This document shows, in pieces, positions 2,412 to 60,391 of a stretch of DNA of 64,000 bases. The notes under the pieces are model-generated. The model was not told where the DNA came from. It was given only the letters and a program-made list of their open reading frames with translations, and ran no database searches. Source of the DNA: a virus (lineage: Duplodnaviria; Heunggongvirae; Uroviricota; Caudoviricetes; Crassvirales); the IMG/VR virus record IMGVR_UViG_3300042448_001903, positions 1 through 64,000 of that record. One strand, written 5' to 3'. A program made the position numbers and the translations under genes. Position 1 is the first letter of the stretch, and each line of letters begins with the position of its first letter.

Positions 2412-2763
2412 GCCAGTTTCAATGTCTGTCAAAGACTATTTAATTAGAATATTAGCAGTGAAGTCAATGACGTCTGAAAAAGTGATAGAGGCTGTTGTAG
2501 CACATCAATTTCAATCTGCTAATGAGGCTTTGCAAAAAAACAATACAGTGGAGATTTCTGGGTTTGGAAAATTTATATTTAATGTAAATAAAGCAAATAA
2601 AAAGCTAGAGATGTTTGCAAATGTACAACGGATACAAAATGCAGTGTTGGCAGATGAGGCCGCTACAGAAGCAAAGAAACAAAAGGCAATGAGGATTTTA
2701 AATGATGTACAGAATTCTGTACAATTAATAAAAGACAAATTAAAAGAGGGTGATGAAGCTTAA
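2404..2763 (+). CDS. HU/IHF-like DNA-binding protein (divergent, 119 aa)
   Basis: The N-terminal 60 aa align with HU, for example ...NNTVEISGFGKFIF versus HupA ...GDAVQLVGFGTFKV. The GFG(K/T)F motif is characteristic. The DNA-binding arm is divergent. Confidence 0.55.
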   Translation: MDKPVSMSVKDYLIRILAVKSMTSEKVIEAVVAHQFQSANEALQKNNTVEISGFGKFIFNVNKANKKLEMFANVQRIQNAVLADEAATEAKKQKAMRILNDVQNSVQLIKDKLKEGDEA

Positions 2764-3058
2764 TTTTTCCCAGATATTTGAAGGATGGAGAAACGATCTT
2801 TTTCCTCCCGAAGAGCTTAAGAGCATAATTTTGAGTGTTAGTGAGGAGCGAATAAATATATGTGAGCAGTGCCCAGCACATTCTAAGCATCATAAAACAA
2901 TAAGAAAGGATGTTCATTGTACAGCTTGTGGATGTCCTTTAGCTAAAAAAACAAAGTGTCTGTCCTGTGAATGTCCCTTGAAAAAGTGGATGGCCTTGAT
3001 GGATGAAGACAAAGAATCTGAAATATTAAAATCTTTTGATGATGTCCCAGGAGAATAA
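2750..3058 (+). CDS. Cys-rich Zn-ribbon-like small protein (102 aa)
   Basis: There are eight Cys and several His arranged as CEQCP...H..HH...C.ACGC.......C.SCEC, a treble-clef/zinc-ribbon-like spacing. Confidence 0.45.
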   Translation: MMKLNFSQIFEGWRNDLFPPEELKSIILSVSEERINICEQCPAHSKHHKTIRKDVHCTACGCPLAKKTKCLSCECPLKKWMALMDEDKESEILKSFDDVPGE

Positions 3059-3460: not shown

Positions 3461-3748
3461 ATGAGTGTAAAGAAAAACCATTATTTCCAGGCTATTCATA
3501 TTCTACAGGAATTACATAAAGAGTTTCCCATGTATAATATGGGAAGACATCTTTCAACAGCCTTAGAAGGATATGGTGATATGTGGGGAATAACAGATAA
3601 AGAGCTTGTCTATGCTCTAGAGAAATATAAGGAACAAATAGAGATGGATGTTCCTCATACAGAAGAGTCAGAGATAGATAGGATAATTAAAGAAGGAATG
3701 GATCTTGGCCTCTTGTTTAGAGGAGAAGAGTATGAAGAAGAGACGTAA
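3461..3748 (+). CDS. hypothetical protein (95 aa)
   Basis: The ORF is in the track. Its composition is coherent. Confidence 0.4.
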   Translation: MSVKKNHYFQAIHILQELHKEFPMYNMGRHLSTALEGYGDMWGITDKELVYALEKYKEQIEMDVPHTEESEIDRIIKEGMDLGLLFRGEEYEEET

Positions 3749-3757
3749 ATAAAAAAT

Positions 3758-4090
3758 ATGGCTACACTTAAAAAAACTACATACATAAATGCTGAGTTAG
3801 ATTGGTCTGAACAGCAGCTGCAGTCTTGGAAAGCTTATGTGGATGCAAATCCTTTGCATGAGCTTAAAGATAGGATTGAGTGGAAACCAACATCAAAAGG
3901 AGGAATGCTTCCTATGGTGATAGCCTCTATTGAGGCCCAGGGAAAATTCATCCAAGAAACAATGAAGAATTATTTAGCTTTATTAGAAGTGGTGGAGAAG
4001 CTGAGAGAAAAAGAAGAGGCTAAAGTGGAAGTGAGGGGGAAAGGAGAACTCTCTGGAGCTGCTGCTGAATTCCTAGCAAATAGAAAATAA
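3758..4090 (+). CDS. hypothetical protein (110 aa); position immediately upstream of TerL makes a small terminase subunit role possible
   Basis: Its stop overlaps the TerL start (TAATG at 4088-4092). It is predicted helical with a K/E-rich C-terminus. The call is by position only. Confidence 0.35.
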   Translation: MATLKKTTYINAELDWSEQQLQSWKAYVDANPLHELKDRIEWKPTSKGGMLPMVIASIEAQGKFIQETMKNYLALLEVVEKLREKEEAKVEVRGKGELSGAAAEFLANRK

Positions 4091-6111
4091 TGGAATTACA
4101 AAATATAGATTATAAAGATTGGTTTATAAATCAAAAACGAATTCCAGACAGAGATTCTGTAGAATGTAAACAATTCTTTGATTTCCATAAAGATGTTTGT
4201 TTAAATGGAGCTATGATGGATGGGGTGTATATCAACCCCTTTTTATATTGGCACTTAAACATCTGGCATACAGAAGTGGATGTAATTGATAGCTATGGAA
4301 GAATAGCTCAAAAATATGCCAATCCATTCTTAAGAGATAATGAGTGGTTGGTGTCTAATGAAATTGATAGAGCCCAAGGAGAAAAGAAAGGCCTGGTTAT
4401 TTTAGGAATTAGACGTTTTGCCAAGAGTGTTTTAGAGGCAAGTTATATTGCATGGGGTGCTACATTTGATGAGAATTCTCAAAATATTATTGCTGGATTG
4501 AACGCTCCAGATATAAAACTGATTACAGATAAGATTGATAAGGGGTTAAATTTTATTCCTGAATATTGGAGATGGCAGAGGATTGAGGATAATTGGAAAA
4601 ATCAAGTGACCCTCGGTATCAAAACTAAGAGTGGAGAACGTATTCCTTTTTCTTCTATTCTTATTCGTAACTTAGATGAGGGTAATAATGAAGAAGCAAT
4701 TGCTGGTACAAAACCCCGTAAACTAATTATTGATGAGATAGGAAAAGGATCTTTTCTTAGAGGACTGCAGGCAGCTGTTCCTGGTTTTACAACACCATTT
4801 GGTTGGGGATGTTCTCCAATTCTTACAGGAACAGGGGGAGATATGAAGAAATTTCTTGATGCTAAATCTCTAATGTTTGATGTAGATAATTTTAACTTCC
4901 TTACATATAATAATAGTAAGGATGATAAACGTATTCATGGGTTGTTTATTTCCCATAAATATAGAATGGAAGCAAAAGAGTCTTCTACATTAGGAGCTTT
5001 TTTGGAACAGCCTGCATCAAGTGATCTCCATAATATACAGATGTTAGTGTCTAATGAGGAGAAAGCTACAGAGATTACCAACTCAAACTTAGAAAAGCTT
5101 AAAAAGGCAGGAGACAGAATTGCCTATTTAAAAGAAAAGATGTACTATCCCCAGGAAGTGGATGATATATTCTTAAATGAAGATACAAATATATTTGATA
5201 TAGAGGGGGCTAAAAGACAAAAGGCCAGACTTTTACAGCAAGAAAGAACAGGCACTCCTGTCATATTATTTAATGACGGAGAAAAAATAGCCCATGAATT
5301 TACAGATAAAAGACCTATTTCAAATTTTCCATTAAAGAATAGTGATCTTAAAGACGCTCCTGTAGTGATATATGAGTTTCCTGTAGAAAATCCTCCTTAT
5401 GGATTGTATGTTGCTGGGGTGGACCCATATAGACAAGGTAAATCAGCATACAGTTCTTCTTTAGGATCTGTATATGTTTATAAAAGAATGCACGATCTTA
5501 CAGGGGAAAAATATCAAGATATGTTTGTTGCTTCCTATTGTGCACGTCCTGATAAAAAGGAAATATGGGAAGAGCAGGCCAGGATGTTGATTAAATTCTA
5601 TAATGCTCGTACGTTGTGTGAGAATGATGATATATCATTTATTGAGTATATGAAAGCTAAGGGAGATGCTCATTATTTAGAGAAGCAGCCCGAATGGTTA
5701 AAAGAGATTGTTCCTAATACAACAGTGAAGAGAGACTATGGAATACACCGTTCCAGTGAAAAGATAATTGACTATTTGCACAACTGTTTAAAAAAATACA
5801 CAGAAAGTGTTATATACAAAGAAACCAATGAACAGGGAGATGTTATAAAGGAAGTGCTGGGAATAAGTAAGATATTTGATCCTGTCTTGTTAGAAGAAAT
5901 GATACAATATAATGATTCAGGAAACTTTGACCGAATTATTGCTGCAGAACTAGCCATAGCACAAGCTATGAAAATGGATCCTATAATGGGAAAAATAGGC
6001 GGATCAGGAGATGATAGAGTGCAAGCATTATATTCTAAAAAACCAAAGAATACATTATTTTCACAATCTAATGGATTGTTTAATACTAAAAAACGTAAAT
6101 TGTTTACATAA
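4090..6111 (+). CDS. terL: terminase large subunit (ATPase + nuclease), 673 aa
   Basis: It has a Walker A-like motif GIRRFAKS and a Walker B-like motif KLIIDEIG. A C-terminal RNase-H-like nuclease signature VYVAGVDPYRQG is followed by further acidic residues. The size is typical for TerL and a portal-sized gene follows it. Confidence 0.8.
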   Translation: MELQNIDYKDWFINQKRIPDRDSVECKQFFDFHKDVCLNGAMMDGVYINPFLYWHLNIWHTEVDVIDSYGRIAQKYANPFLRDNEWLVSNEIDRAQGEKKGLVILGIRRFAKSVLEASYIAWGATFDENSQNIIAGLNAPDIKLITDKIDKGLNFIPEYWRWQRIEDNWKNQVTLGIKTKSGERIPFSSILIRNLDEGNNEEAIAGTKPRKLIIDEIGKGSFLRGLQAAVPGFTTPFGWGCSPILTGTGGDMKKFLDAKSLMFDVDNFNFLTYNNSKDDKRIHGLFISHKYRMEAKESSTLGAFLEQPASSDLHNIQMLVSNEEKATEITNSNLEKLKKAGDRIAYLKEKMYYPQEVDDIFLNEDTNIFDIEGAKRQKARLLQQERTGTPVILFNDGEKIAHEFTDKRPISNFPLKNSDLKDAPVVIYEFPVENPPYGLYVAGVDPYRQGKSAYSSSLGSVYVYKRMHDLTGEKYQDMFVASYCARPDKKEIWEEQARMLIKFYNARTLCENDDISFIEYMKAKGDAHYLEKQPEWLKEIVPNTTVKRDYGIHRSSEKIIDYLHNCLKKYTESVIYKETNEQGDVIKEVLGISKIFDPVLLEEMIQYNDSGNFDRIIAAELAIAQAMKMDPIMGKIGGSGDDRVQALYSKKPKNTLFSQSNGLFNTKKRKLFT

Positions 6112-8696
6112 TGGCAATAATAAGATATACAAAAGATGCTACCATAAGGTATGCCTATTTAAACATATTTCCAGATCAGTTTAAAACTGATAAAGAGAAG
6201 GAAGATGAAAGTTGGGTGAAAAACACAATGGACTATTTTGCTAACAAGGCCTATGCTGAATATGTAAAAAACAGAGATACATTTGTTAAAAACTACGATC
6301 TTATTAAGGGTATTTTAAGAATGGAAGATTTTTATCAGGAGCCTCAGGTGAAGAGTTTTACAGAAATGCTAACAACAGATCTTGAACTTCCTGCATATGT
6401 AAAACATTATTCTATTCTCACTACACCAATTAATGAGCTTGTAGGAGAAATTTCTAAAAGACCAGATGCATTTAGAGTGAAAGCTTTTGATGAAGATAGT
6501 CAGTCTGAAGAGTTAGAATTTAAAACTAAGATATTACAAGATTTTGTAATTAGTCAGGCTAAACAAAAGATAATGGAACAAGCCTCCCTCCAAGGACAAG
6601 AACTTGGGGAAGAGGAGCTTCAACAAATGACAATGGATGATGTAAAGGATGAACTTGATAATTACACATCTATAGCTGAAAAATGGGCCAATCATATTCT
6701 TACATGCCAAAAAGCCGAGTTTGTTCTAAAAGAAAAAAGTGAAGATGCTTTTAGAGATATGCTTATATCTGCTAGAGAATTCTATCATATATATGAGGAT
6801 AATTCAAAACTTGGGTTTAATATAGAAGTGGCCAATCCTAAAAATACATGGTTTCTTACCACTCCAGATAGAAAATATATATCAGATCCTACAGGAAGAG
6901 CGCAGGGAGCATATGCTGCTGGTATAGTGCAGGTGATGGAACTCTCCGAAATAATTGAAAGTATTCCAGATCTTACTAAGGAAGAGATAGATCATTTACG
7001 TTCATCTCTCCAAGATTACGGATTAATTAATGTGCGTGAATCCAACCTTGGAAATCCTGATGCTGCTCCAGGTATAGATTCTGTTCAATATGACACTTAT
7101 GATCCTGCTGTTCTTCAGACACGTATGATTATAGAAAGTGAAATGAAAGAAAACAATGATGGATTAAAAGATTTCTTAGGCCTTACATCAAATGTGTCTT
7201 CTTTTGGATACAAATATGTGGTGGTTAGGGCATATTGGATTTCTAAAAAGAAAATAGGTAAGTTGATTTATTTGGATGAGATGGGAAATGAGCAATCTAT
7301 GCTTGTAGACGAAAATTATAAATCAAACACAATTCCTACACAGCAGTCTTTAGAATGGGGATGGATTAATCAATGGTATCAAGGAATAAAGATAGGACCA
7401 GACATCTACCATATAAAACCTTACAAATTATTAAATTATTGTCCTATAATAGGAACTATTCATGAGGTGAAAAATACAGAGGCTAAATCTTTAGTAGACC
7501 TTATGAAACCTTTCCAAGTGCTGTACAATGTTTGTATGAACCAGCTTTATAAACTTCTTGAAAAGGAAGTGGGTAAAGTGTATTTAACATCCATAAGACA
7601 CGTTCCTATTCCAAAAGATGGGGATGCGCAGGATGCTTTAGATGTTTGGGAAATGGAAGCAAGAAACAGGGGTATAGTTTTTATAGATGATAGTCCTGAG
7701 AATTTAAAATCTCCTAGCTCTTTTAACCAGTTTAGAGATATAGATCTTACACGTACACAGGAAATTCAATCTCGTTATCAGCTTGCTATGCAACTTAAAA
7801 CTGAGTGTTGGGAATTAATCGGTATGTCTAGACAAAGAATGGGTTCTATATCTGCAAGTGAATCTGCTACAGGAACTAATGCAGCACTTACTCAATCTTA
7901 TTCCCAGACAGAGCCATTATTTGTAGCCCATGAATATGTATTGGGCCAACTATATCAAGCAATCATTGACGCAGCTTTATATGTAGAAAGTAAAAAACCA
8001 CAATCCACCCTATCATACATCACTTCTGAAGGAGAATCTGCTTTTGTTCAGGTGAATGGATCCGATCTTAAGTTTAGAGATATTAAAGTGTTTTTAACTA
8101 ACAGACCAGAAGATCAGAAGTTGTTTAATGAGATTAGAAGTCTTTCTCAAGCTGCTCTTCAAAATGGTGCCAGTCTTCATGATGTTATTGAGTTGTATTC
8201 TACAAACTCTGTTAGACAGATGAAGAAAGTGTTTAAGACGCTTAAAGAAAGACAGGAACAAATGCAAGACCAACAAATGCAACAGCAGCAGCAGCAAATG
8301 GAACAACAGCAAGAACAAGCTCAAGCTGCCCTTCAACAGGCCCAACAGCAGCATGAAGAAAAACTTGCTCACGATGATTACCAAAAAGAACTTGATAGAC
8401 TATCTAAAGAGAAAATTGCTATCATTTCTGCTACAGGATATGGTAAAGTGGAGAGCGAAGATGTAAATCAAAATGCTGTACCAGATGTTTTAGAGATGAG
8501 TAGACTGGCTGCAGAACAAGTGAGAACCACTAAAGACTACGAAACTAAAATGGCAGATATAAATGCTAAGAACAGATTGGCTAACCAAAAACTTCAAGTG
8601 GAAAGAGAAAAACTTCAAGTGGCCAGGGAAAATCAAGCAAACGATCTTGCTATTGCAAAAGAAAATGCAAAAGGTAGAGCAAAAACTAAAAAATAA
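6111..8696 (+). CDS. putative portal protein (861 aa) with Q-rich coiled-coil C-terminal tail
   Basis: It lies immediately downstream of and overlapping TerL (TAATG). The size fits the large portals of crAss-like phages. The C-terminus is Q/E/K-rich low complexity (QQMQQQQQQMEQQQEQAQAALQQAQQQHEE...). No diagnostic motif was recognised, so the call is by synteny. Confidence 0.55.
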   Translation: MAIIRYTKDATIRYAYLNIFPDQFKTDKEKEDESWVKNTMDYFANKAYAEYVKNRDTFVKNYDLIKGILRMEDFYQEPQVKSFTEMLTTDLELPAYVKHYSILTTPINELVGEISKRPDAFRVKAFDEDSQSEELEFKTKILQDFVISQAKQKIMEQASLQGQELGEEELQQMTMDDVKDELDNYTSIAEKWANHILTCQKAEFVLKEKSEDAFRDMLISAREFYHIYEDNSKLGFNIEVANPKNTWFLTTPDRKYISDPTGRAQGAYAAGIVQVMELSEIIESIPDLTKEEIDHLRSSLQDYGLINVRESNLGNPDAAPGIDSVQYDTYDPAVLQTRMIIESEMKENNDGLKDFLGLTSNVSSFGYKYVVVRAYWISKKKIGKLIYLDEMGNEQSMLVDENYKSNTIPTQQSLEWGWINQWYQGIKIGPDIYHIKPYKLLNYCPIIGTIHEVKNTEAKSLVDLMKPFQVLYNVCMNQLYKLLEKEVGKVYLTSIRHVPIPKDGDAQDALDVWEMEARNRGIVFIDDSPENLKSPSSFNQFRDIDLTRTQEIQSRYQLAMQLKTECWELIGMSRQRMGSISASESATGTNAALTQSYSQTEPLFVAHEYVLGQLYQAIIDAALYVESKKPQSTLSYITSEGESAFVQVNGSDLKFRDIKVFLTNRPEDQKLFNEIRSLSQAALQNGASLHDVIELYSTNSVRQMKKVFKTLKERQEQMQDQQMQQQQQQMEQQQEQAQAALQQAQQQHEEKLAHDDYQKELDRLSKEKIAIISATGYGKVESEDVNQNAVPDVLEMSRLAAEQVRTTKDYETKMADINAKNRLANQKLQVEREKLQVARENQANDLAIAKENAKGRAKTKK

Positions 8697-9226
8697 TGTT
8701 TGATAAATTAATAGACCTTCTTACACAATGGTGGCTGGAAATATCCCCAGCCATCATTATTAGGGACTATGAAGAAGCTGTCCTTTTAAGACTTGGTAAA
8801 TATAGAAAAAATCTATATCCAGGATTTTATTTTAAAATACCTATAGTGGATGAAGTGATTGTACAGCATGTTGTTGTCACCACATTAAGCCTCTCTGCCC
8901 AGTCTTTATATACTAAGGACAAACAAAACATTGTTGTCAAGGGGGTGATTAAATATAAAATAGCAGATGTAAAGACATTTTTATTAGAAGTGTTTGATGC
9001 TCAAGATGCTATAGCAGATATGTCACAAAGTATTATAAAAAATGTTATTATGTCTATGACTCTTGATGAATGCACAGATGTTGAATTAGATAATATTCTC
9101 ACTAAAAAAATGAGAGTGGAAGCAAAGAAGTGGGGAGTGGAAATACAACAAGTGACACTAACAGACCTTGCTCCTATCAGAAGTTTTAGAATATTAAATG
9201 ATACAATAACAAATAAACTTGATTAG
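8696..9226 (+). CDS. SPFH/band-7 (stomatin/prohibitin/HflKC-like) domain protein, minimal 176-aa form without TM anchor
   Basis: It aligns along its whole length with the stomatin/HflC core. EEAVLLRLGKYRKNLYPGFYFKIPIVDEV matches ERAVIFRLGR...GPGL.F.IPF.D.V, and TKDKQNIVVKGVIKYKIADV matches TKDNV.V.V.AVV.YRV.DP. A C-terminal ...KWGVEIQQVTLTDLAP matches ...WGI.V..V.I.D...P. Confidence 0.75.
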   Translation: MFDKLIDLLTQWWLEISPAIIIRDYEEAVLLRLGKYRKNLYPGFYFKIPIVDEVIVQHVVVTTLSLSAQSLYTKDKQNIVVKGVIKYKIADVKTFLLEVFDAQDAIADMSQSIIKNVIMSMTLDECTDVELDNILTKKMRVEAKKWGVEIQQVTLTDLAPIRSFRILNDTITNKLD

Positions 9227-9343
9227 AGTAAAAATGATTAATGCTATATTATCAGCAAAAATGGTCCATATACATCATATAGTCTTTGATATTAAGTTTA
9301 TATAATATACTTTTACATCTGAAAACCAACTAAAAAACTACAT

Positions 9344-10594
9344 ATGGCTGAAAATCTAGATAGTCCATCTTTTAATTTTGGGATTGAGAACACTATGGAA
9401 ATGGGATTGGGTAATGCAGAATTACTTAATGATCTTATGGGTGCAGAAACTTCCACTAGTAATCCTGATGATATTAAAGATATTAAAGAGGAAGATCCAA
9501 AACCTGCTTCCCCCAAAACTACTGTAGATAAACCTAAACAAGAATCTCCTAAAGAAGACACAGAAGAAAAGACTAAAAAGTCTTTACAGGATTTTTTATT
9601 AGGTGGAGATGATGATGAAGAAGAAACAGATAGTGATGAGCCTCCTACTAAGGCTCCTGCAAAACCAGAAGAGGCTGACAACAATGATGGAGAAGAGTCT
9701 GAAGAGGTTAGTCAATTTACAGCATTATCTAATGACTTATTCAAACTTGGTGTATTTACTAAGGAAGATGGAGAAGATGATGATGTAACAATTTCTACCC
9801 CAGAAGAATTCTTAGAAAGGTTTAATGCAGAGAAAAAGAAAGGTGCTATTGAAGTGGTAAATAACTTCATTGGTCAATTTGGTGAAGACTATCAACAAGC
9901 ATTTGATGCCATATTTGTAAAAGGAGTGGATCCTAAAGAATATTTTGGTGTTTATAATAATATACAAAATTTTGCTGAACTAGATCTTTCAGAGGAAGCT
10001 AATCAAGTGGCAGTGATTAAACAAGCATTAGCTGATCAAGGATTTGATCCTGAAGATGTTACAACAGAAGTGGAGCGTTTAAAGAACTATGGTGATCTTG
10101 AGACTGTAGCTGCAAAACACCACAAAGTACTAGTAAAAAAAGAATCAGCAAAGCTTCAACAAATGGAGCAAGAGAACGAAAAAAGATTACAACAACAACA
10201 AGCGGTTAAACAACAATATTATAATAACGTTCAAACTATTTTGCAAGATAAAGTGAAAACAAAAGAGTTTGACGGTATTCCAATTAACCCAAAACTGGCT
10301 GGTGAACTACAAGATTTCCTATTAGTAGATAAGTATAAAACAACTTCTGGCGAAACTTTAACAGATTTTGACAGAACAATTCTAGAATTAAAAAGACCAG
10401 AAAACCACGAAATGAAAGTTAAAGTGGGTCTTTTATTAAAAATTTTAGAAAAAGATCCTATGTTATCTACAATACAAAAAACAGGCCTCACCAAAAAGTC
10501 TAATGAATTGTTTGGTGAAGTGGCTAGACAGGTGACAAAATCTGCTGTTAAAACAGGGAAATCAGCCAGTGCTACAACATCATGGTTTCAATAA
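9344..10594 (+). CDS. acidic, partly disordered and coiled-coil protein (416 aa); candidate scaffolding protein
   Basis: The N-terminal ~130 aa are extremely D/E/K/P-rich. The C-terminal half is helical with a Q-rich coiled-coil. It sits between portal and putative MCP, the canonical scaffold position. Confidence 0.45.
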   Translation: MAENLDSPSFNFGIENTMEMGLGNAELLNDLMGAETSTSNPDDIKDIKEEDPKPASPKTTVDKPKQESPKEDTEEKTKKSLQDFLLGGDDDEEETDSDEPPTKAPAKPEEADNNDGEESEEVSQFTALSNDLFKLGVFTKEDGEDDDVTISTPEEFLERFNAEKKKGAIEVVNNFIGQFGEDYQQAFDAIFVKGVDPKEYFGVYNNIQNFAELDLSEEANQVAVIKQALADQGFDPEDVTTEVERLKNYGDLETVAAKHHKVLVKKESAKLQQMEQENEKRLQQQQAVKQQYYNNVQTILQDKVKTKEFDGIPINPKLAGELQDFLLVDKYKTTSGETLTDFDRTILELKRPENHEMKVKVGLLLKILEKDPMLSTIQKTGLTKKSNELFGEVARQVTKSAVKTGKSASATTSWFQ

Positions 10595-10628
10595 ACAATT
10601 TATACATTTAAATTAAAAAATAACACAA

Positions 10629-12182
10629 ATGGCAATTCAAACTATTCCAGGTTTAACTGGATTTACTTATGCTCGTGTGGCCTCTATGGACAAACGTGCT
10701 GTTGGTAAATTAACAGATTCTAACCACTTGGAAAGCTTTCACTCAACTGAGCCTGCTGATTATGATAAAAAAATCATCAGCTTATACACTCAGAGCTCAT
10801 TGTACAGCAATGACTTTTTGGATATGATTAATAAGAGCACTCCTTATTACATCGACAATAACAGTGATGCTTGGAAGTGGCAAGTACAAGTTCCTTACAA
10901 ATTTCCTAAAATCATTGATGTTCCAGATAGCACAATCAATTTGAGCAAGCCTGGTATTGATGGCCAAGAGTTTTCTCTTGTATTAGACACAAATGAGTTC
11001 TCTAAGAACGCTATTGTTTCTGTAGGATCTCGTCAGTATGGACCTCGTTTCTACGTAATTAAAGATCCTGTTCCTTGGAACATGGGCTACCTTTACACTT
11101 TCACTTTAGTAACTGACAACCCAACAGTTGATTTCGTAAGCTCTACCTTCTTACAGACTGGTATTGAATTGGAATTAGTTGATGCAGCTATTGGTGAATT
11201 TGATCAAGATCTTTTAGGTCTTCCTCGTTTAGGTGAGCAAATCACTATGTTTGAATCTTTAGGTTCTGCATATGGTTATGAGCACAAAATCACTGAGTGG
11301 GCTGATGACAAAATGATGAGAGATGCTTCTGGTAAGCCTCTAGACATTTTAGTATATGCTCCTCAACGTAGAAATCAACTTCCTTTAACTCGTAATGATG
11401 TTAAATGGGAACCATTTATTGAATTCTGGATGCGTAAATCTATGCTTGAGTTGAAAGTTAAGCGTATGATTTGGAGCAAACCAGGTACAGTGAAAACAAA
11501 CGGTTCTAAGCAAGAGTTGAAGCGTACATCTGCAGGTGTTTACCACAGAATGCGTAACAACGGTAACTTAGTACAATACAACCGTGGTGAGTTCTCTGCT
11601 AACTTAATCCGTTCAGTTTTTGGAGATCTTTTCTACAGACGTGTGGATGTTAAAGACCGTAAGGTTAAAATGTACACTAACGAAGCTGGTTTTGATGTAT
11701 TCCAACAAGCTTTAAAGAATGACGCTTTGAATAGTGGTCTTACTTTCATGGCTGATTCTGGAAATCGTTATATGCAAGGAGAAGGTCAACACATCACTTA
11801 CAACTTTGCTTTCGATGCAATGGTTACTCGTGAGACTGGTCGTGTTGAACTAATTCACTTAAAAGAGTTAGATCTTCCTCAATCAAACTTAGAATTTGGT
11901 CAGAACAAAAAGAGCACTCCAGTATTCATGGTGTTTGATGTGTCTCCAATGTCTGATGGTTCTATGATTAATAATATTCGTGAAGTGAGAATGAAGGGTG
12001 CACCTTCTATGACTTGGGGATATATTGATGGTACTCGTCACCACTTAGGTTTTGCTAAGTCTCAAGGTATGAGTTCTGCAAACAAATTCCCTGGTTACGA
12101 AATCTGGATGAAAGATCGTTGTGATGTATTCATCGAAGATTTATCTCGTACCGTTTTAATTGAGGAAATACCACAATTCTAG
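10629..12182 (+). CDS. putative major capsid protein (517 aa)
   Basis: It is in the canonical position after the scaffold. It shows strongly optimised codon choice (CGT for Arg, GGT, CTT, AAC) unlike most other genes here. A strong hairpin terminator follows directly. The size matches crAss-like MCPs. No database confirmation was possible. Confidence 0.6.
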   Translation: MAIQTIPGLTGFTYARVASMDKRAVGKLTDSNHLESFHSTEPADYDKKIISLYTQSSLYSNDFLDMINKSTPYYIDNNSDAWKWQVQVPYKFPKIIDVPDSTINLSKPGIDGQEFSLVLDTNEFSKNAIVSVGSRQYGPRFYVIKDPVPWNMGYLYTFTLVTDNPTVDFVSSTFLQTGIELELVDAAIGEFDQDLLGLPRLGEQITMFESLGSAYGYEHKITEWADDKMMRDASGKPLDILVYAPQRRNQLPLTRNDVKWEPFIEFWMRKSMLELKVKRMIWSKPGTVKTNGSKQELKRTSAGVYHRMRNNGNLVQYNRGEFSANLIRSVFGDLFYRRVDVKDRKVKMYTNEAGFDVFQQALKNDALNSGLTFMADSGNRYMQGEGQHITYNFAFDAMVTRETGRVELIHLKELDLPQSNLEFGQNKKSTPVFMVFDVSPMSDGSMINNIREVRMKGAPSMTWGYIDGTRHHLGFAKSQGMSSANKFPGYEIWMKDRCDVFIEDLSRTVLIEEIPQF

Positions 12183-12190
12183 ATTCCTCC

Positions 12191-12211
12191 TCTAAGAATA
12201 GTATTCTTAGA
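12191..12211. repeat. perfect 10-bp inverted repeat TCTAAGAATA-G-TATTCTTAGA just after MCP stop
   Basis: Read directly from the sequence. Confidence 0.5.
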
Positions 12212-12250
12212 CCGCTTCCAAAAGAAGCTCATAAATTCAAGAAGAGAATG

Positions 12251-12280
12251 CCCCCCACTTCAGGGTGGGGGAGCTCTTCT
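12251..12280 (+). terminator. GC hairpin CCCCCAC-TTCAGG-GTGGGGG followed by a T-rich stretch; probable (partial) terminator downstream of MCP
   Basis: It has a 7-bp G/C stem in an AT-rich genome followed by CTCTTCTT. This is the typical arrangement for keeping MCP mRNA in excess. Confidence 0.5.
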
Positions 12281-12368
12281 TAAAATACAGATGGATGTGT
12301 TGGGGTGTCTCCCAGCAGCATACTCTTCGATGAGAACCATCTGCTAAAAAACCAAATAAAAACTACAT

Positions 12369-13337
12369 ATGGGTAAGATAGGCAAAATTTCAACTATTAA
12401 GAAAGACTACAACAACTCTCAATTGCAAACAATGCAGGGAGGGCTTTCTCAAAAAGGTATGACAAGGATTCCTGGTACAGGTGTATTTAAGTATCCTTAT
12501 AAGGAACTTGATGGACAATATAGAACAGGGCTTGATCCTAATGCTGCTTATATTCGTAGAATTTCTGATCCTTTAGAAAGAGAGATGGAAGTTGAACGTG
12601 TAACAGCTCTTAAGACAAAACTTGAAGCAGCTCTTGGAGATGTTAATCTAGGGTCTAGATCTAGTTTCTGGAACTATGGATTGTCTACATCTACAGATGA
12701 CACTTTACATGTTCAACCTGTAAAATTGTTAGATGGAGATAACTATTTTGATTTAGCACAACCTTTACAAGAATTAGCTTTCTCATGGTTAAGAGTACAT
12801 CCTACAATTGCATCCTCTTATCAAGCATGGGAAAGAGGAGAATTTGCTGCAGAAACACAATTTTATGTAGCAGATGATGAGATTGAAAATGCTGTTATAT
12901 TCAAAAAGAAACAACTTATCAACAAAGCAATTGTTAAGTTTGACTCTATGACACCAGATAAAAAGAAAAAGGTGGCTAGATTGTTAGGACTTCCAGTTAC
13001 AGATGATACCAAAGAAGAAGTGGTATATAATCTTGTAGATAATGTTTTAAAACAAACAGAGTTCAAAACAGGTAAATACCAAGGATTAACACCAGTTGAA
13101 GTTTTTAATAGATTTGCAGATATGAAGGAAAATCTTCTTCACATTAAAGATCTTGTTAAACAGGCCCTTACCCATTCGATTTATAGAGCAAAGGCAAATG
13201 GAAAAATTTACGAAGGTGAATTTGAGGTGGCAAAAGATGAAGACGATTTAGTTAAATTCCTTGCTGATGACGATAATCAAGATGAATTGATTACACTAGA
13301 ACAAAAAGTAAAAACTAAAAAATTAGCTTCTGTATGA
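12369..13337 (+). CDS. hypothetical virion-module protein (322 aa)
   Basis: The ORF is in the track. It is on the same strand within the structural block. Confidence 0.45.
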   Translation: MGKIGKISTIKKDYNNSQLQTMQGGLSQKGMTRIPGTGVFKYPYKELDGQYRTGLDPNAAYIRRISDPLEREMEVERVTALKTKLEAALGDVNLGSRSSFWNYGLSTSTDDTLHVQPVKLLDGDNYFDLAQPLQELAFSWLRVHPTIASSYQAWERGEFAAETQFYVADDEIENAVIFKKKQLINKAIVKFDSMTPDKKKKVARLLGLPVTDDTKEEVVYNLVDNVLKQTEFKTGKYQGLTPVEVFNRFADMKENLLHIKDLVKQALTHSIYRAKANGKIYEGEFEVAKDEDDLVKFLADDDNQDELITLEQKVKTKKLASV

Positions 13338-14065
13338 TACCCGTAGATAGTTTATTATATAAAATTGATCAGAAACTAAATAAACTATCAACAAATGATC
13401 ATCAGGAGATTCCTTTAGAAGATAAAATATTAGCTTTAAATGAAGCTCAAATAAAGCTGATTAAACAAAAGGTTGATGGATTTAGTACTGTTTCTGGACT
13501 TGGATTAGATTCTTTTAAAAAGAGATATGAAGATTTACAGAGTCTTATAGTACCTTATAACAAGGGCAAACTTGATGTAAAAATCAAAAATATTGAACTA
13601 AATCAATGGTCAGCTGATATTCATAAATTAGATCCAAAATACATGTTCTATGTTGATAGTTATGTCATAGCTGACAAGGGAATATGTAAAGATAGAAAAA
13701 TATGGATTAATAGAGATCTTGCTAAACACGGAGACCTTTCTTTAATTTTAAACAATGATCACTATAAACCATCTTTTGAATATCAGGAAACTTTTAATTT
13801 TTTATCCTCTGATGAGATTTCTATATTCACAGACGGAACATTTACACCAAAGGATATATACATTTCTTATATGAGATACCCAGTGTATATTGATAAAGAA
13901 GGATATATAAAATTTGATGGCCAAGAATCAATAAATCAAGATTGCGAACTTGAGACTTATCTGGAGGATGAACTTCTAGATCTTACAGTACAAAATCTTG
14001 CTATGTACACAGAAAATGCTGCAGCAATGCAGAGTGCTCAATATAGAATACAAACAAACGAATAG
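13334..14065 (+). CDS. hypothetical virion-module protein (243 aa)
   Basis: The ORF is in the track. It has an ATGA overlap with the upstream gene. Confidence 0.45.
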   Translation: MIPVDSLLYKIDQKLNKLSTNDHQEIPLEDKILALNEAQIKLIKQKVDGFSTVSGLGLDSFKKRYEDLQSLIVPYNKGKLDVKIKNIELNQWSADIHKLDPKYMFYVDSYVIADKGICKDRKIWINRDLAKHGDLSLILNNDHYKPSFEYQETFNFLSSDEISIFTDGTFTPKDIYISYMRYPVYIDKEGYIKFDGQESINQDCELETYLEDELLDLTVQNLAMYTENAAAMQSAQYRIQTNE

Positions 14066-21319: not shown

Positions 21320-24300
21320 ATGGCTGAAAATAATCAATCCGCTGGTAATATAAGAGAAGAGTATAACTTAGCAAGAATTGGTCTTGATATGGATAGCTCT
21401 GCTAATCAAATAGCAAAGGGTAAGCTTTCTTATGCTCTTAATGCTACTATAGAGAATTTTGATAGTGACAGTGTTAACTATCAAAATGAACCAGGAAATG
21501 AACTATGCTTAAACTTTCCCCAAGACTATCATCTTATTGGGACACATTTTATTCCAGAAAAAAATAAACATATATTCTTTCTTACAAATCCATCTTCAGG
21601 AGCTTCTGAGATTGGGTATATGAATAATAATGATTGTACCTACCATACATTAGTATCTGCCACTTGTCTAAATTTTAATATAGACAACCCTATTCATAAA
21701 GTGGTACATAAAATAACTAATTGTACCACTGAAATTTATTGGACGGATGGTTTAAATCCAAGAAGATATTTAGATATTGAAAACATACCATATATTTTAT
21801 CCTACCCAATAGCTTTAGGTGGAAATATTAATTTATGTGGAATAACAGAAACAAAAGAACTAGATTGTAATAAATTAAATGTTCAACCCAACTTTGAAAT
21901 TCCACAACTAGAAGTGGTGGATATTAATACAGGTGGAGAGTTGCAAGCTGGAACATATCAATTTGCAATACAATATTGTGATGCTAATGGGAATTCATAT
22001 ACATCATATTATTCTGTTACTAATCCAACACCTATTTTTGATGCAGCTAAAACTACATTAAATTTTAACTATACGGTGGGAAGATCTATTGTAATTAATG
22101 TCTCTAATTTAGATATATCAGGACTGTTTAAATATTTTAATTTAGCAGTGATAAAAACCGTTAATGCTATTTCTTCCGTAGAATTAGTTGGAACATATTT
22201 TATAAATAATGTTAGTAGAGAGATTACCTACACTGGTCAAAATGTAACACAAATTAGACTTACAATTAATGACATTTTTGAAAAATTTCCTTATTATGAA
22301 ATAGCAGAAGATCTTACAACAGTGCAGGATGTACTAGTGTGGGACGGTCTTACATCTATTGATAGAATTAACTATCAACAAATTGCTAATCAAATAGATC
22401 TTAAATGGCAATCTTATAGAATTCCTAACACTGAAACATACGCTGATGAGTTAAATGCCACTAATTATAGAGGATATTTAAGGGATGAAGTGTATGCATT
22501 TGAAATTGTTTTTTTATTAAAAAATGGAAAACAAACAGATGGGTTTCATATTCCTGGAAGAGCTATTACATTTAATGAAACTTCTGAACCATTAGTGCCT
22601 ACAACAAACCCTGATTTTGTTGGAGACCCTGAATTTGAATCTGGTGGTGTAGGATATAGTGCTTATTGGAAAATTTATAATACAGCATCTGTTACAGGTT
22701 TTAATCCTGAATACTTAGCAGCTTTAAATAAAATTACATATAAAGGTCCATATCAATATGGAGAGTTTGCTTATTGGGAATCTACAGAAAAATATCCTTG
22801 TAATATAGATGTATGGGGTGAATTAGCAGATCAACCAATTAGGCACCATAAGTTTCCTGATGTATTAGTTAGTCCTATATTTGAAAGTCCTGTTTATTCA
22901 TTAGGACCAGGTTTTTCACCAGTGATGCAAAATGATGCTATATTCCCAATAGGAGTGAGGATAGATATTCAACAAGTTTCTCAATTAATATATACATCTA
23001 ATTTAACAAAAGAACAAAAAGAAAGTATTGTTGCTTTTAAAATTGTTAGAGGAGATAGAAGTACAAACAAATCCATTATATCTAAAGGGATATTAAGGAA
23101 TGTAGGGAAATACAATAGAGAGGGGACAGACTATTATTATCCAAACTACCCATATAACGATCTTAGAAAAGATCCTTTTATACTTTCAAAAAGTAATGCC
23201 TACAAAGATGAGTGTAAGGTGTATACAGGCACACCTAGTGTAAGTGGTACATATCAATATACAGATTGTTACACAAATACACCTATTACAGCTAACATGA
23301 CTGCTGGTACTCTTATTACAATTACATCTCTATCCACCCCAATAGCTTTAACAGGCACTGTAACATTTACAGAGTCTACCACTATACCATTATCAGATTA
23401 TTACATTACACCTGAATTAGAGGGATTTTCTTCTGATGATTCTAAATACAGACATGTGTTTAATTCTCCAGAAACTTTATTTGGACAACCTTATTTAGGG
23501 AATGTCCTTAAATTAGAAAATATTATTCTTGGTGGCGGAAAGGCTCATTTTGTACAAGTTAGAGAACATGCTTTATATAAATTATTAACAAAAGAGGCTC
23601 AAAAGGATGCATTAAACTCTAGTACAGAAATAGCTTCTATAACAGGAACATTAGATCCTTTAGTTTTATTCACTGCTTATCAGGCTTATCTACAAATTTA
23701 TATTAACGGTATTACAAGAAGAAATTACGCATATTCTTTTAACTCTATTGCTAGCTATGATTATAGTGCTGATATAATCAATAATGTAGGAGTGAAACAA
23801 AGACCTCTGGCGGTTGCTCAGTATATTTTTGAGGGAGTACAGGCTATAGGAGAAACTAATGGTATAAATATAAATAATTATAATAGAGAGTCTTCTGTAT
23901 TTTTAAAAACTATAGAAACTAGAAATGGTAATGTTGTAACACCTCTTCCATTTCCAGATAAAAGTCCTTCTATTGCTCCTGTAGGGGTGAGTCTTTTTAC
24001 AGATAATTCTAGATTTGTAGCTTCTGATGATGATAAATGTTCCACTCCTAGCGAGGAAAGGCATATTGATGTTATCTCTTATTACGGATCAATGAAAAAT
24101 ATATTTGTTAACCAATGGGGACAAATATATTCATATGACACAATTGATACAGGTTTCCAAAGAAATATAGAAATAGATAATATTCTTAATGGGCAGCCTT
24201 CAATAGATACAGTTTTTGGTGGGGACACTTTTATAGGAAAGTTTGCTTTTAAAACTAAACTTCCTTTATTTATAGATGATAGAGTGAATGCTCCAGATGA

Positions 24301-58858: not shown

Positions 58859-59559
58859 GTAGGATAACAATTAAAGGACAAACAGTTTATGGAGTTAAAC
58901 CTATTGTAACAGATGGGCTTGTTTTATATTTAGATGCAGCTAATACTAAAAGTTATCCTGGTACAGGTACAACATGGACTGATTTAAGTGGTTACAATAG
59001 TAACGGCACATTAACAAATGGACCAACATTTAATCCTTCTAATGGGGGCAGTATTGTGTTTGATGGAACAAACGATTTTGTGTTATTAAAAAGTGGAGCG
59101 GCTTTATTAACACAAACTTCCAATATAACTATGGAAATTTGGTTTTATAAAACAGGTACAGGATTAAACTATAGATTATTTTATAATGGAAATAGTGGTG
59201 CAAATGGATATGGATTTTATACAGGAGTGTGTAGTACACCTACAACATTATTAGGAATACTTTTTGGTGGTGTGGCTTGTAATGTCGTATCAACAACAGT
59301 AGCTATAAATACATGGTATCACGCTGTTTTCACTAATGCACCAGGTAATATTAACACTTTATACTTAAATGGAGTGGCTGTTAGTACAGCAAATCAATCT
59401 TTTGTAGCACCAACAACTGAGACAACAATAGGTGCTGCTACAAATGCTTCTAATGCTTATGCTGGTAGAATAGCAATAGCAAAATTATACAATCGTGCTT
59501 TATCAGCATCAGAAGTACTACAAAATTATAATGCTTTAAAAAGTAGGTTTGGATTATGA
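58855..59559 (+). CDS. LamG/concanavalin-like lectin-fold tail fibre accessory protein (234 aa), paralog 1
   Basis: The motif LYLDAAN...G.GT.W.DLSG...NGTLTNGP......GG.IVFDGTND is typical of Laminin_G_3-type phage fibre domains. The C-terminus NYNALKSRFGL is shared with paralog 2. Confidence 0.55.
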   Translation: MSRITIKGQTVYGVKPIVTDGLVLYLDAANTKSYPGTGTTWTDLSGYNSNGTLTNGPTFNPSNGGSIVFDGTNDFVLLKSGAALLTQTSNITMEIWFYKTGTGLNYRLFYNGNSGANGYGFYTGVCSTPTTLLGILFGGVACNVVSTTVAINTWYHAVFTNAPGNINTLYLNGVAVSTANQSFVAPTTETTIGAATNASNAYAGRIAIAKLYNRALSASEVLQNYNALKSRFGL

Positions 59560-60269: not shown

Positions 60270-60391
60270 ATAATATGAGAGTAGACAGTTTATGATATTT
60301 GATGTTACAGAATTAGATACACCAGAGTGGCAAAACATTCATATAACAATTTAAAAACTTTACCTATTGGATAGTGAAAATAGGATAAAAA

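Follow-up and report, generated by a model that had tools for sequence, protein, structure and literature searches.

A stripped-down SPFH/band-7 protein encoded behind the portal gene of a freshwater crAss-like phage belongs to a large, mobile family with a possible membrane- or lysis-related role

Why does a crAss-like phage carry a gene for an SPFH/band-7 protein directly behind its portal gene? We analyzed this locus in a window of 64,000 nucleotides (positions 1 to 64,000 of the Crassvirales record IMGVR_UViG_3300042448_001903), in which the gene is the only SPFH-family copy (Table 1). A sequence-only reading had described a minimal SPFH protein between portal and scaffold genes that could assist head assembly, regulate a protease or, packaged with the virion, target the host membrane. 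We prefer a modified form of the last proposal, in which this is a functional, late-expressed accessory gene of a mobile family whose soluble SPFH core would have a membrane- or lysis-related action in the infected cell. We hold this reading tentatively, at a probability of roughly 0.45.

Table 1. Coordinates of the mini-SPFH gene, its parts and neighboring features in the window.
Feature	Position	Strand	Description
Large terminase TerL	4090..6111	+	phrog_6681, 4.1e-85; first large gene of co-directional block
Portal	6111..8696	+	861 aa; Pfam P22_portal, 2.8e-14; phrog_6547 portal, 6.5e-101; directly 5' of mini-SPFH gene, coupled
TAATG junction	8694..8698	+	Portal stop TAA (8694-8696) overlaps mini-SPFH ATG (8696-8698)
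Mini-SPFH gene	8696..9226	+	ORF listing; ATG start, 176 aa, 20.3 kDa, pI 5.5
N-terminal amphipathic helix	8699..8743	+	Residues 2-16, FDKLIDLLTQWWLEI; AF2 helix; family signature MFDxLxDxL..W...P
SPFH1 + SPFH2 core	8750..9175	+	Residues 19-160; Pfam, Foldseek
Short C-terminal tail	9176..9223	+	Residues 161-176, R162-S163-x-R165-I166; replaces canonical coiled-coil start
Promoter-like motif	9285..9315	+	In 117-nt spacer 3' of mini-SPFH gene; TTTG-N19-TAnnTTTA
p416, putative scaffold-like protein	9344..10594	+	416 aa, acidic, helical; phrog_16294, function unknown; between portal and MCP
crAss-type major capsid protein (MCP)	10629..12182	+	Pfam Crass_capsid, 1.5e-28

The protein passed the gathering threshold of the Pfam Band_7 profile (PF01145; E = 8.9e-25, 88.2 bits compared to a cut-off of 23.6), with residues 21-160 of 176 aligned to profile positions 2-147, and a phmmer search of PDB sequences returned human stomatin (4.7e-12 over residues 21-162), QmcA (1.9e-11) and HflK (1.7e-6). 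The AF2 model (mean pLDDT 93.4, pTM 0.82) consists of a helix at residues 2-16, a beta-rich SPFH1 part and an alpha/beta SPFH2 part that ends at residue 159. Foldseek placed this model closest to stomatin (9oh9; E = 9.6e-15, TMq 0.76), followed by HflK, QmcA, prohibitin, erlin and flotillin, and the top 49 PDB matches were all SPFH proteins. Profile, model and structure search thus agree on the SPFH/band-7 core that had been proposed, and a match spanning 140 residues together with a confident fold model rules out an artefact of short, low-complexity similarity. Conserved core positions in the family alignment are R32, G34, G43, P49, Q69, T73, D75, D108 and G147. The ORF is a real gene for a stripped-down SPFH/band-7 protein. 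The end-to-end core match claimed by the sequence-only reading holds for residues 21-160; the first ~18 residues, which form a family-specific helix, and the last 16 lie outside it.

Stomatin (human STOM, 9OH9/9WMJ; Pyrococcus horikoshii PH1511) was the best match in both sequence and fold, sharing SPFH1, SPFH2 and the RxG, PG and TKD motifs. Stomatin, however, starts with a membrane hairpin, continues C-terminally into a long coiled coil and forms 16-mer membrane cages, whereas the mini-SPFH protein lacks hairpin and coiled coil, is ~100 residues shorter and begins with an acidic amphipathic helix instead. The ring size of 12 to 24 subunits that had been quoted for SPFH proteins is too narrow, because the matched QmcA entry has 26 chains (the stomatin entry lists 16).

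Hydropathy and the AF2 model bear out the proposed absence of a membrane anchor and a C-terminal coiled coil. Kyte-Doolittle means over 19 residues reached 1.06 in the best N-terminal window and 1.52 in the best window anywhere, compared to a threshold of ~1.6, and thus predicted no transmembrane segment; the sequence contains no lipobox, and its sole cysteine lies within the SPFH2 part. These results rule out a transmembrane anchor or a lipoprotein, and the canonical N-terminal anchor of SPFH proteins, be it a TM helix, hairpin or lipid anchor, is missing. No coiled coil appears in the AF2 model, in which the chain stops where the canonical SPFH coiled coil starts and 16 residues remain after the last SPFH2 strand; the PDB homologues, which align through their SPFH part, have 250-300 residues compared to 176. 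The protein is probably soluble.

Both termini carry family-specific features. The signature of the N-terminal helix was conserved in 63 diverse family members that we aligned, with a median hydrophobic moment of 0.56 compared to 0.23 for shuffled sequences. Its net charge was negative in 80% of members and its polar face is acidic, which argues against direct binding to anionic lipids and suggests that any membrane link is indirect at best. The tail (residues 161-176) was modeled at low pLDDT; 75 of 132 family representatives have the motif R-S-x-R-[LI] there, and R165 is nearly invariant.

One of the roles first suggested was protease regulation, which we take here as control of an enzyme of phage or host after the pattern of HflK/C with FtsH or stomatin with NfeD. 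HflK and HflC (E. coli FtsH modulators; 7VHP/7WI3), which share the SPFH fold, scored highest among NCBIfam models for all family members tested. The window protein scored 67.4 bits for HflK (TIGR01933) and 51 for HflC (TIGR01932); both values fall far below the equivalog cut-offs of 159.4 and 134.4, and the protein is thus no HflK/HflC equivalog. In E. coli, HflK/C work from the periplasm by means of a TM anchor and a cage of coiled coils; the mini-SPFH protein has neither anchor nor coiled coil. One group of related phages (L119, L123 and L148) encodes a Trypsin_2 peptidase three genes 5' of the SPFH gene, but Pfam searches of the 17 other window proteins scanned found no protease or NfeD family, and the neighborhood yielded no FtsH or NfeD partner. 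Of all the explanations considered here, we give protease regulation the least credence.

The genetic context of the gene is that of a head operon, as proposed: Pfam and PHROG searches identified TerL, a P22-like portal protein and a crAss-type MCP. Scaffold protein is a plausible label for p416, whose N-terminal part is acidic and disordered; its single-sequence AF2 model is all-helical at low confidence (pLDDT 49), which supports 'helical, partly disordered' at most, and a family search matched only phrog_16294, a PHROG of unknown function. The window contained no recognizable lysis genes near the mini-SPFH gene. The sequence also confirmed translational coupling to the portal gene, the last A of the portal TAA being the A of the mini-SPFH ATG (junction AAAAAATAATGTTTGAT); across the lineage described below, the two genes either overlap at TAATG or are separated by a spacer of a few nucleotides (e.g. 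TAATTATG and TAAATATG).

Beyond the mini-SPFH gene, the blocks CTCTTTG and TATACTTTTACA were near-invariant among 55 distinct spacers compared. The promoter-like motif that lies there recurs 13-29 nt 5' of further gene starts and resembles the Bacteroidota promoter type. Its position suggests that p416 and MCP open a new transcription unit and that the mini-SPFH gene closes the TerL-portal unit. Near the mini-SPFH gene itself, a sigma-70 promoter scan found promoter-like sites no more often than in shuffled sequence, and a search for terminator-like hairpins found none.

Within one genus-level, freshwater crAss-like lineage, the order TerL-portal-SPFH-p416-MCP was fixed in 108 of 108 IMG/VR loci. 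The ratio dN/dS was 0.076 for the SPFH gene, 0.092 for portal and 0.060 for MCP, and nearly all SPFH copies are 176 aa long; the low ratio and the near-constant length rule out a decaying or hitchhiking ORF. By this comparison of sequences, the mini-SPFH gene is under strong purifying selection in the lineage. Outside it, the position is not kept. In Leptolyngbya phage Lbo-JY46, the nearest annotated relative, homologues of TerL (7.6e-150), portal (3e-83), MCP, p322 and p243 stand in the same order, but only 75 nt separate its portal gene from the next gene and no SPFH-family match was found at its head-module locus. No INPHARED phage, crAss-like genomes included, encodes a close mini-SPFH homologue. 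Two further crAss-like lineages carry the gene elsewhere, one in the order Ring2-Ring1-SPFH-muzzle-like giant protein (L128/L147) and the other at yet another position (L155). The many late-operon positions across the family suggest that the site beside the portal gene is a lineage-specific insertion rather than the mark of a core role in crAss-like head morphogenesis.

These crAss-like loci also bear on delivery of the protein as virion cargo, ejected with the DNA to act on the next host's membrane. In two crAss-like lineages, operons of virion structural genes enclose the gene (portal-SPFH here; Ring1-SPFH-muzzle-like in L128), and crAss001 is known to package cargo proteins beside the portal. 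However, we saw no homology to crAss001 cargo or structural proteins, the gene is missing in relatives, and a virion role is difficult to square with members that lie in lysis or replication modules or on bacterial chromosomes. We consider cargo highly improbable; the protein is probably not a part of the capsid.

The gene is not singular, contrary to what had been supposed. A family search gave 4702 matches at E <= 1e-3, and of the 150 top-ranking representatives after clustering at 50%, 133 were 165-190 aa long. We define the mini-SPFH family by a length of ~165-190 aa, the N-terminal helix signature, the SPFH core and a short R-S-x-R-L tail; the window protein has all of these, and its end-to-end alignments (residues 1-170 of 176) include representatives with as little as 30% identity. 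By sequence clustering, the family comprises at least ~130 clusters at 50% identity and hundreds at 90%, and is abundant in environmental phages. It is large, uncharacterized, mostly phage-borne and horizontally mobile, with many sites in late operons.

Annotation of the family is limited to automatic 'HflK/HflC' labels. One example, the 173-aa 'HflK protein' A0A6J7WFI0 of an uncultured Caudovirales phage in BFVD (TM 0.85/0.87, 29% identity), evidently belongs to the same family, which is thus already in public databases under an automatic name. Longer phage SPFH proteins are a different matter. These, likewise of no known function, include the PHROG_200 'lipoprotein', ORFs of the T4-like phages 44RR, Aeh1 and RB43, gp200 of Vi01-like phages, a protein of N4-like GIB1 and prohibitin-like proteins of Rhizobium and Agrobacterium phages; they are typically 260-400 aa long, are anchored as lipoproteins or by a TM segment and have helices at the C terminus, whereas the mini-SPFH protein has its own length, helix and tail. 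Its match to phrog_200 was weak and partial (E = 3.5e-8, profile positions 106-258 of 379), and it has no signal-like or lipobox N-terminus. The literature on phage SPFH genes yielded annotations, listings or statements of 'function unclear', and no functional study was found. Single-protein scans of IMG/VR with P0165, P0203 and P0129 gave no matches.

To see which genes accompany the family, we compared neighborhoods in a biased sample, which depends on IMG/VR and a single motif (Q[ST]LTTKDG), with heuristic gene calls. Lysis genes recur. Lysozyme lies at position -1 in L119 and L123, lysozyme and a 2-TM protein precede an SPFH gene that ends the block in L145, and L169 has lysozyme, a TM-rich protein, a TM protein and then SPFH; GTA_holin_3TM stands at -2 in L120 and an endolysin at -3 in L117. 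The closest homologue outside the lineage (L110, 55% identity) follows a 3-TM protein, lysozyme and several further genes. Pfam identified 10 lysis-type proteins among the +-3 neighbors of 34 non-redundant viral loci, an enrichment of P ~0.004-0.08 depending on how loci are counted and on roughly estimated null probabilities. The gene frequently closes a co-directional block, and some members lie in replication contexts. An all-against-all BLAST of the +-3 neighbors in viral loci found no universal partner gene; shared neighbors were specific to sub-lineages. The functional tie to a dodecameric portal that had been suggested is not supported by these comparisons, the gene being missing in Lbo-JY46, placed elsewhere in L128 and L155, and flanked by lysozyme or holin genes in other phages.

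Members that adjoin TerL, portal, scaffold or Mu-F genes are nevertheless about as numerous as those that adjoin lysis genes, which could instead indicate a morphogenetic role. As a portal or procapsid assembly factor, an SPFH oligomer would chaperone or template the portal ring or procapsid nucleation and be made in portal-like amounts through coupling; a possible functional analogue is T4 gp40, a membrane-associated factor on which portal-initiated prohead assembly depends. The tight coupling to portal is kept in the lineage, selective constraint equals that of the structural genes, and the gene appears to have entered unrelated head/packaging modules independently: portal-scaffold-SPFH-MCP in a T7-like phage (L132), TerL(gpA)-SPFH-89 aa-portal in a lambda-like phage (L153), portal(DUF4055)-SPFH-Mu F in L163, L164 and L161, TerL-SPFH in L129 and MW202733, and SPFH two genes from TerL in L151 and L154. 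For direct adjacency to TerL or portal, P was ~0.05 under a roughly estimated null. Head genes were, however, only weakly enriched within +-3 genes (P ~0.06, under a similarly rough null), and the accessible part of the crAss001 virion atlas lists no SPFH protein or scaffold. The protein also lacks the coiled coil that closes canonical SPFH rings, the syntenic Lbo-JY46 module and all INPHARED crAss-like genomes lack the gene, which lies away from portal in the two other crAss-like lineages, and many members occupy lysis, replication or cellular contexts. Hence we regard an assembly factor as unlikely, if worth keeping in mind.

Cellular copies introduce a further explanation, a moron-type gene for superinfection exclusion, defense or counter-defense that blocks rival phages or neutralizes a host system in which SPFH scaffolds are used or sensed. 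Some members on proteobacterial chromosomes are paired with a secreted beta-rich protein, and the regions around cellular copies resemble islands, with toxin-antitoxin pairs, HsdM, an antirestriction gene and a transposase. Sampling of cellular members is poor, a genome-contig search with the motif QSLTTKDGK having given only 2 loci. In L110, the SPFH gene has the lysis region on one side and an integrase on the other, a setting typical of moron/defense hotspots. Classical morons (e.g. lambda bor and lom) are accessory genes between conserved late genes with their own promoter and terminator. Like morons, the mini-SPFH gene is lineage-specific, as the comparison with Lbo-JY46 indicates, and the family spreads patchily over unrelated phages, in a manner suggestive of horizontal transfer, at variable sites that are often module ends. 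Unlike them, it brings neither promoter nor terminator, the downstream promoter-like motif facing p416, and it is translationally coupled into a structural operon. Searches of PADLOC-DB v2 (E <= 0.01) with the protein, with two relatives and with five neighbor proteins of cellular loci returned no match, which argues against a known anti-phage defense protein. Late expression would suit exclusion but not early counter-defense, and the TM segment or lipoprotein signal usual in exclusion proteins is missing. An exclusion or defense role is thus quite doubtful.

A membrane- or lysis-related role is, in our view, the most plausible one, and the host-membrane-targeting proposal persists in that form; we infer a cytoplasmic location, late timing and membrane- or lysis-directed action. 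Family members would have inserted at varied points of phage late operons, here directly 3' of the portal gene, so that the protein would be translated by coupling as the final product of the TerL-portal unit while a separate promoter-like element just 3' would serve the scaffold-like gene and MCP. Having lost the anchor and the cage-forming coiled coil, the protein might bind a partner through its SPFH surfaces, N-terminal helix and R-S-x-R-L tail, on or close to the cytoplasmic side of the membrane. It could then influence the timing of holin-triggered lysis, a membrane event at the end of infection, or, as a non-polymerizing subunit, interfere with host SPFH or membrane-protease assemblies. 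A bolder version, which we think improbable, is a phage-wide 'poison subunit' or adaptor, whose soluble SPFH core would dock on the portal/procapsid nucleus as a template, or on host SPFH/FtsH-type cages to disable them late. If that were true, the crAss-like, T7-like, lambda-like, Mu-F and lysis-cassette acquisitions would reflect one unrecognized late-infection mechanism.

For annotation, members of this family should not be named HflK or HflC, nor assumed to be head proteins from their position. SPFH proteins are understood as membrane-anchored cages closed by coiled coils, and the family, a natural and widespread form with neither anchor nor coiled coil, provides a test of what the bare SPFH core can do. 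Its members turn up repeatedly in the head/packaging and lysis modules, which are the two best conserved of the late modules. If its members aid portal or procapsid assembly, they would represent a new kind of morphogenetic chaperone; if they modulate lysis timing or host membrane-protease scaffolds, they would represent a new class of late host-takeover factor.

The ORF encodes a 176-aa protein (mini-SPFH, a name that we also use for its family of ~165-190-aa anchorless relatives), and the final base of the portal TAA is the first base of its ATG, a TAATG junction that bears out the coupling to the portal described in a sequence-only reading of the window. That reading was also right to call an SPFH/band-7 domain: mini-SPFH matched Pfam Band_7 (PF01145) with E = 8.9e-25, scoring 88.2 bits where the cut-off is 23.6, over 140 residues (21-160, profile positions 2-147), and matched solved stomatin, QmcA, and HflK/HflC chains in a search of PDB sequences (E = 5e-12 to 4e-6). 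The AlphaFold2 model, computed from 63 diverse homologues, was very confident (pLDDT 93.4, pTM 0.82) and contained an N-terminal helix (residues 2-16), a beta-rich SPFH1, an alpha/beta SPFH2 extending to residue 159, and a floppy 16-residue tail. The top 49 Foldseek matches to this model in the PDB were all SPFH proteins, with stomatin first (9.6e-15), then HflK, QmcA, prohibitin, erlin, and flotillin. By profile and by fold, mini-SPFH is a member of the SPFH superfamily. The alignment proposed to run end to end covers the core and excludes the first ~18 and last 16 residues, which are family-specific elements, and the matched PDB entries contain 16 stomatin chains and 26 QmcA chains, so that solved rings are not confined to the 12-24 subunits previously quoted.

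Mini-SPFH is an SPFH core with neither anchor nor coiled coil, as first claimed. None of its 19-residue windows reached transmembrane hydrophobicity (best N-terminal value 1.06, best overall 1.52), and the chain stops at the point where canonical SPFH proteins continue into a coiled coil. It therefore falls outside the canonical SPFH scaffolds, and it also lies outside SPFH-NfeD operons and the PHROG_200 lipoprotein type. HflK and HflC were its best NCBIfam matches, yet far below the cut-offs, and are not equivalogs; protease regulation, which the sequence-only reading had suggested, seems highly improbable in its classical form. Nor did mini-SPFH match known defence families, and we think it rather unlikely that the gene is a moron for exclusion, defence, or counter-defence. 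In the papers found, which deal with one Crassvirales genus and with jumbo, T4-like, Vi01-like, N4-like, and T5-like phages, SPFH/band-7 genes are either simply listed or described as having an unclear role. Their products are mostly long and anchored, whereas mini-SPFH is short and anchorless; the long pattern recurs in the phrog_200 'lipoprotein' (profile length 379) and in BFVD, where viral SPFH proteins are mostly 260-500 aa apart from one of 173 aa, labelled 'HflK protein' and encoded by an uncultured phage, that shares the mini-SPFH fold (TM 0.85). The protein is best described as an anchorless mini-SPFH, an uncharacterised variant new to the known SPFH types.

When 1.84 billion cluster representatives were searched exhaustively with HMMER, 4702 matched at E <= 1e-3, 844 of them with E <= 1e-10; 133 of the best 150 were 165-190 aa long, and representatives among these 150 aligned with the query end to end at identities down to 30%. 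A 63-member alignment showed canonical SPFH motifs (R32-x-G34, P-G43, P49, and T73-K-D75), a family-specific N-terminal helix (MFDxLxDxL..W...P), and, at the C-terminus, an R-S-x-R-[LI] motif whose R165 is nearly invariant. The N-terminal helix is strongly amphipathic (median hydrophobic moment 0.56 vs 0.23 for shuffled sequences); its net charge is negative in 80% of members, and its polar face is acidic, which argues against direct binding of anionic lipids. Because scanning 185,579 species genomes with a narrow motif yielded just two loci, the family, though weakly sampled, appears mainly viral; it is large, patchy in distribution, and mostly phage-borne.

In the window, the gene lies inside a co-directional block that continues beyond the major capsid protein (MCP) gene with more conserved virion genes, among them CrAss_Ring_2 and CrAss_Ring_1. 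The operon context had been read correctly, and the label 'scaffold' for the 416-aa neighbour p416 is conjectural; a low-confidence single-sequence model of p416 is all-helical. Carriage of mini-SPFH in the virion as packaged cargo, also raised by that reading, is improbable in our estimation. An identical mini-SPFH occurs on ~112-kb metagenome contigs, and the G+C content of the window is 33%. The long, Q/E/K-rich C-terminus of the portal continues beyond residue 748, where the P22_portal match ends, and may be the counterpart of the P22-like C-terminal barrel.

Positions of features in the window and in other loci
Sequence	Feature	Position	Strand	Remarks
Window	IHF-like genes	2404-2763, 2750-3058		L155 counterparts 44-48% identical
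Window	TerL	4090-6111	+	phrog_6681, 4e-85
Window	P22-like portal	6111-8696	+	ORF ending in TAA, overlaps SPFH ATG
Window	Portal C-terminus	8100-8696		Residues ~665-861, QQMQQQQQQMEQQQEQAQ...
Window	Mini-SPFH	8696..9226	+	ATG start, 176 aa (ORF listing)
Window	Spacer	9227-9343		117 nt
Window	Block TTAATGCTATATTAT	~9236-9250		Second near-invariant block of lineage spacers
Window	Promoter-like motif	9285-9315	+	Near-invariant CTCTTTG-N19-TATACTTTTACA in post-SPFH spacer
Window	p416	9344-10594	+	Acidic, 416 aa; PHROG of unknown function
Window	crAss-type MCP	10629-12182	+	Crass_capsid 1.5e-28
Window	Hairpin CCCCCACTTCAGGGTGGGGG	12252-12271		Directly 3' of MCP gene; terminator-like on both strands
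Window	Giant ORFs in series	21320-58858	+	2229, 1388, 919, 4157, 2150, 1315 aa
Window	2229-aa ORF	21320-28009	+	1534-aa homologue in L128/L147
Window	4157-aa ORF	35911-48384	+	Exceptionally large
Window	Tandem Laminin_G_3 paralogues + fibre protein	58855-62809		ConA-like lectin, 234 + 237 aa; followed by 805-aa fibre protein, Peptidase_S74 intramolecular chaperone domain at C-terminus
PP438436.1	Lbo-JY46 module	100114-119748		
L128/L147	Mini-SPFH	6001-6531		
L155	Mini-SPFH	5935-6537		200 aa
L119	Peptidase-to-SPFH cassette	6423-8534		
L111	Mini-SPFH + beta-rich partner	10001-11376		Partner downstream
L112	Mini-SPFH + beta-rich partner	10001-11370		Partner downstream
L170	Mini-SPFH + beta-rich partner	7001-8388		Partner downstream
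L113	Mini-SPFH + beta-rich partner	8931-10537		Partner upstream
L121	Mini-SPFH + beta-rich partner	7034-8528		Partner upstream, frameshifted

The spacer that follows the gene is the only sizeable gap near it and measures 117-123 nt across the lineage. Its promoter-like motif resembles the Bacteroidota -33/-7 promoter (TTTG ... TAnnTTTG) and recurs 13-29 nt upstream of gene starts 2058, 17929, and 33155, which gives a hint of how the operons are organized and that the host may be a member of the Bacteroidota. A hairpin scan of 3500-13500 found the longest and most GC-rich hairpin after the MCP gene and no GC-rich hairpin after any other gene of that interval. On the simplest reading, mini-SPFH would be the last cistron of a TerL-portal unit, made in portal-like amounts, and p416 and MCP would be driven by a strong promoter of their own. 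Given the coupling to the portal and the promoter-like motif downstream, mini-SPFH is probably expressed late and at a modest level.

Querying IMG/VR with the window protein or a 43% relative retrieved 108 loci, and 108/108 had the order TerL-portal-SPFH-p416-MCP-p322-p243 (p322 and p243 are conserved genes after MCP). With identities of ~95% for MCP and 65-100% for SPFH, these loci are a single freshwater lineage at the genus level. The gene is real and under constraint; pairwise dN/dS, with dS near saturation, was 0.076 for SPFH, 0.092 for portal, 0.085 for TerL, and 0.060 for MCP. No close mini-SPFH homologue was found among INPHARED phages. The nearest annotated relative by MCP, Leptolyngbya phage Lbo-JY46, has collinear homologues of TerL (7.6e-150), portal (3e-83), MCP (2e-42), p322, and p243; its portal and the gene that follows lie only 75 nt apart, and its 19.6-kb locus contains no SPFH-family match. 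Lbo-JY46 is a cultured cyanophage, and the genes of this module are all annotated as hypothetical. In a distant second crAss-like lineage (L128/L147, IMG/VR contigs of 122 kb and 72 kb, 30% G+C), a 47%-identical mini-SPFH lies between ring protein 1 and a homologue of the window 2229-aa protein, overlapping both genes. A third crAss-like relative (L155, a 122-kb IMG/VR contig) encodes a 26%-identical mini-SPFH in yet another genome region. The position beside the portal, sought in other crAss-like phages, is therefore occupied in one genus-level lineage and not in Lbo-JY46, L128/L147, or L155; absence from the first and other positions in the rest indicate that it is a lineage-specific insertion, as judged from these comparisons. 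Mini-SPFH genes are inserted at differing late-operon sites among phages, and the comparative data give no support to a portal-specific function, the gene being absent or elsewhere in relatives.

We collected 34 non-redundant viral loci from one motif-based IMG/VR scan, exact-protein look-ups, and an earlier scan, called their genes heuristically, and scanned the ±3 neighbours against Pfam. No partner gene was universal among these neighbours. Lysis-type families were Phage_lysozyme (three times), GTA_holin_3TM and Hydrolase_2 (twice each), GH108, Glucosaminidase, and Amidase_2; packaging and head families were terminases, four portal-type families, Mu F (three times), T7 scaffold, and MCP; the remainder included DNA polymerase A, RtcB, a methylase, and more families. 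Lysis neighbours were enriched at P of about 0.004-0.08 depending on the count used, and head and packaging neighbours at about 0.05-0.06, values from rough nulls that are indicative only. A lysozyme gene directly precedes mini-SPFH in L119 and L123, a holin lies at -2 in L120, and an endolysin at -3 in L117; the block of L145 ends with lysozyme, a 2-TM protein, and SPFH, and L169 has lysozyme, a TM-rich protein, a TM protein, and SPFH. Outside the lineage, the mini-SPFH of L110 is the closest homologue (55% identity); the order there is 3-TM protein, lysozyme, several genes, SPFH, and integrase. L119, L123, and L148 share a cassette of Trypsin_2 peptidase (191-207 aa), 155-aa TM protein, lysozyme, and mini-SPFH; L119 also carries DNA polymerase A and primase-polymerase genes elsewhere. 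Head-module arrangements were portal-scaffold-SPFH-MCP (L132, T7-like), TerL-SPFH-89 aa-portal (L153, lambda-like), portal-SPFH-Mu F (L163/L164/L161), and TerL-SPFH (L129, MW202733). A proteobacterial sub-family is chromosomal, and every locus pairs mini-SPFH with a secreted beta-rich (OMP-like) protein, an uncharacterised two-gene cassette; downstream partners have 251-277 aa and are 38-44% identical to each other, and upstream partners have 308 aa and a weak OMP_b-brl match.

The main rival explanation, a portal or procapsid assembly factor, which we find doubtful, draws on the conserved portal coupling and on independent insertions that place the gene next to portal or TerL in head modules of four unrelated types. 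Being dispensable in syntenic relatives and moving between modules, mini-SPFH is unlikely to be a capsid building block. We infer a cytoplasmic location from the lack of an export signal, and action through protein-protein contacts, not as a membrane scaffold, from the loss of both cage-building SPFH elements. SPFH proteins generally organize membrane microdomains and control membrane proteases and channels. Combined with this biology, the recurrent terminal place in lysis cassettes points most plausibly to membrane events at the end of infection, a tentative reading with a probability of roughly 0.45 and much lower confidence in any specific target. Mini-SPFH might time lysis or, alternatively, might be a non-polymerising subunit that interferes with host SPFH or membrane-protease assemblies. 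The original observation is confirmed and its interpretation partly supported. Mini-SPFH proteins form a large, constrained family found in both key late modules.
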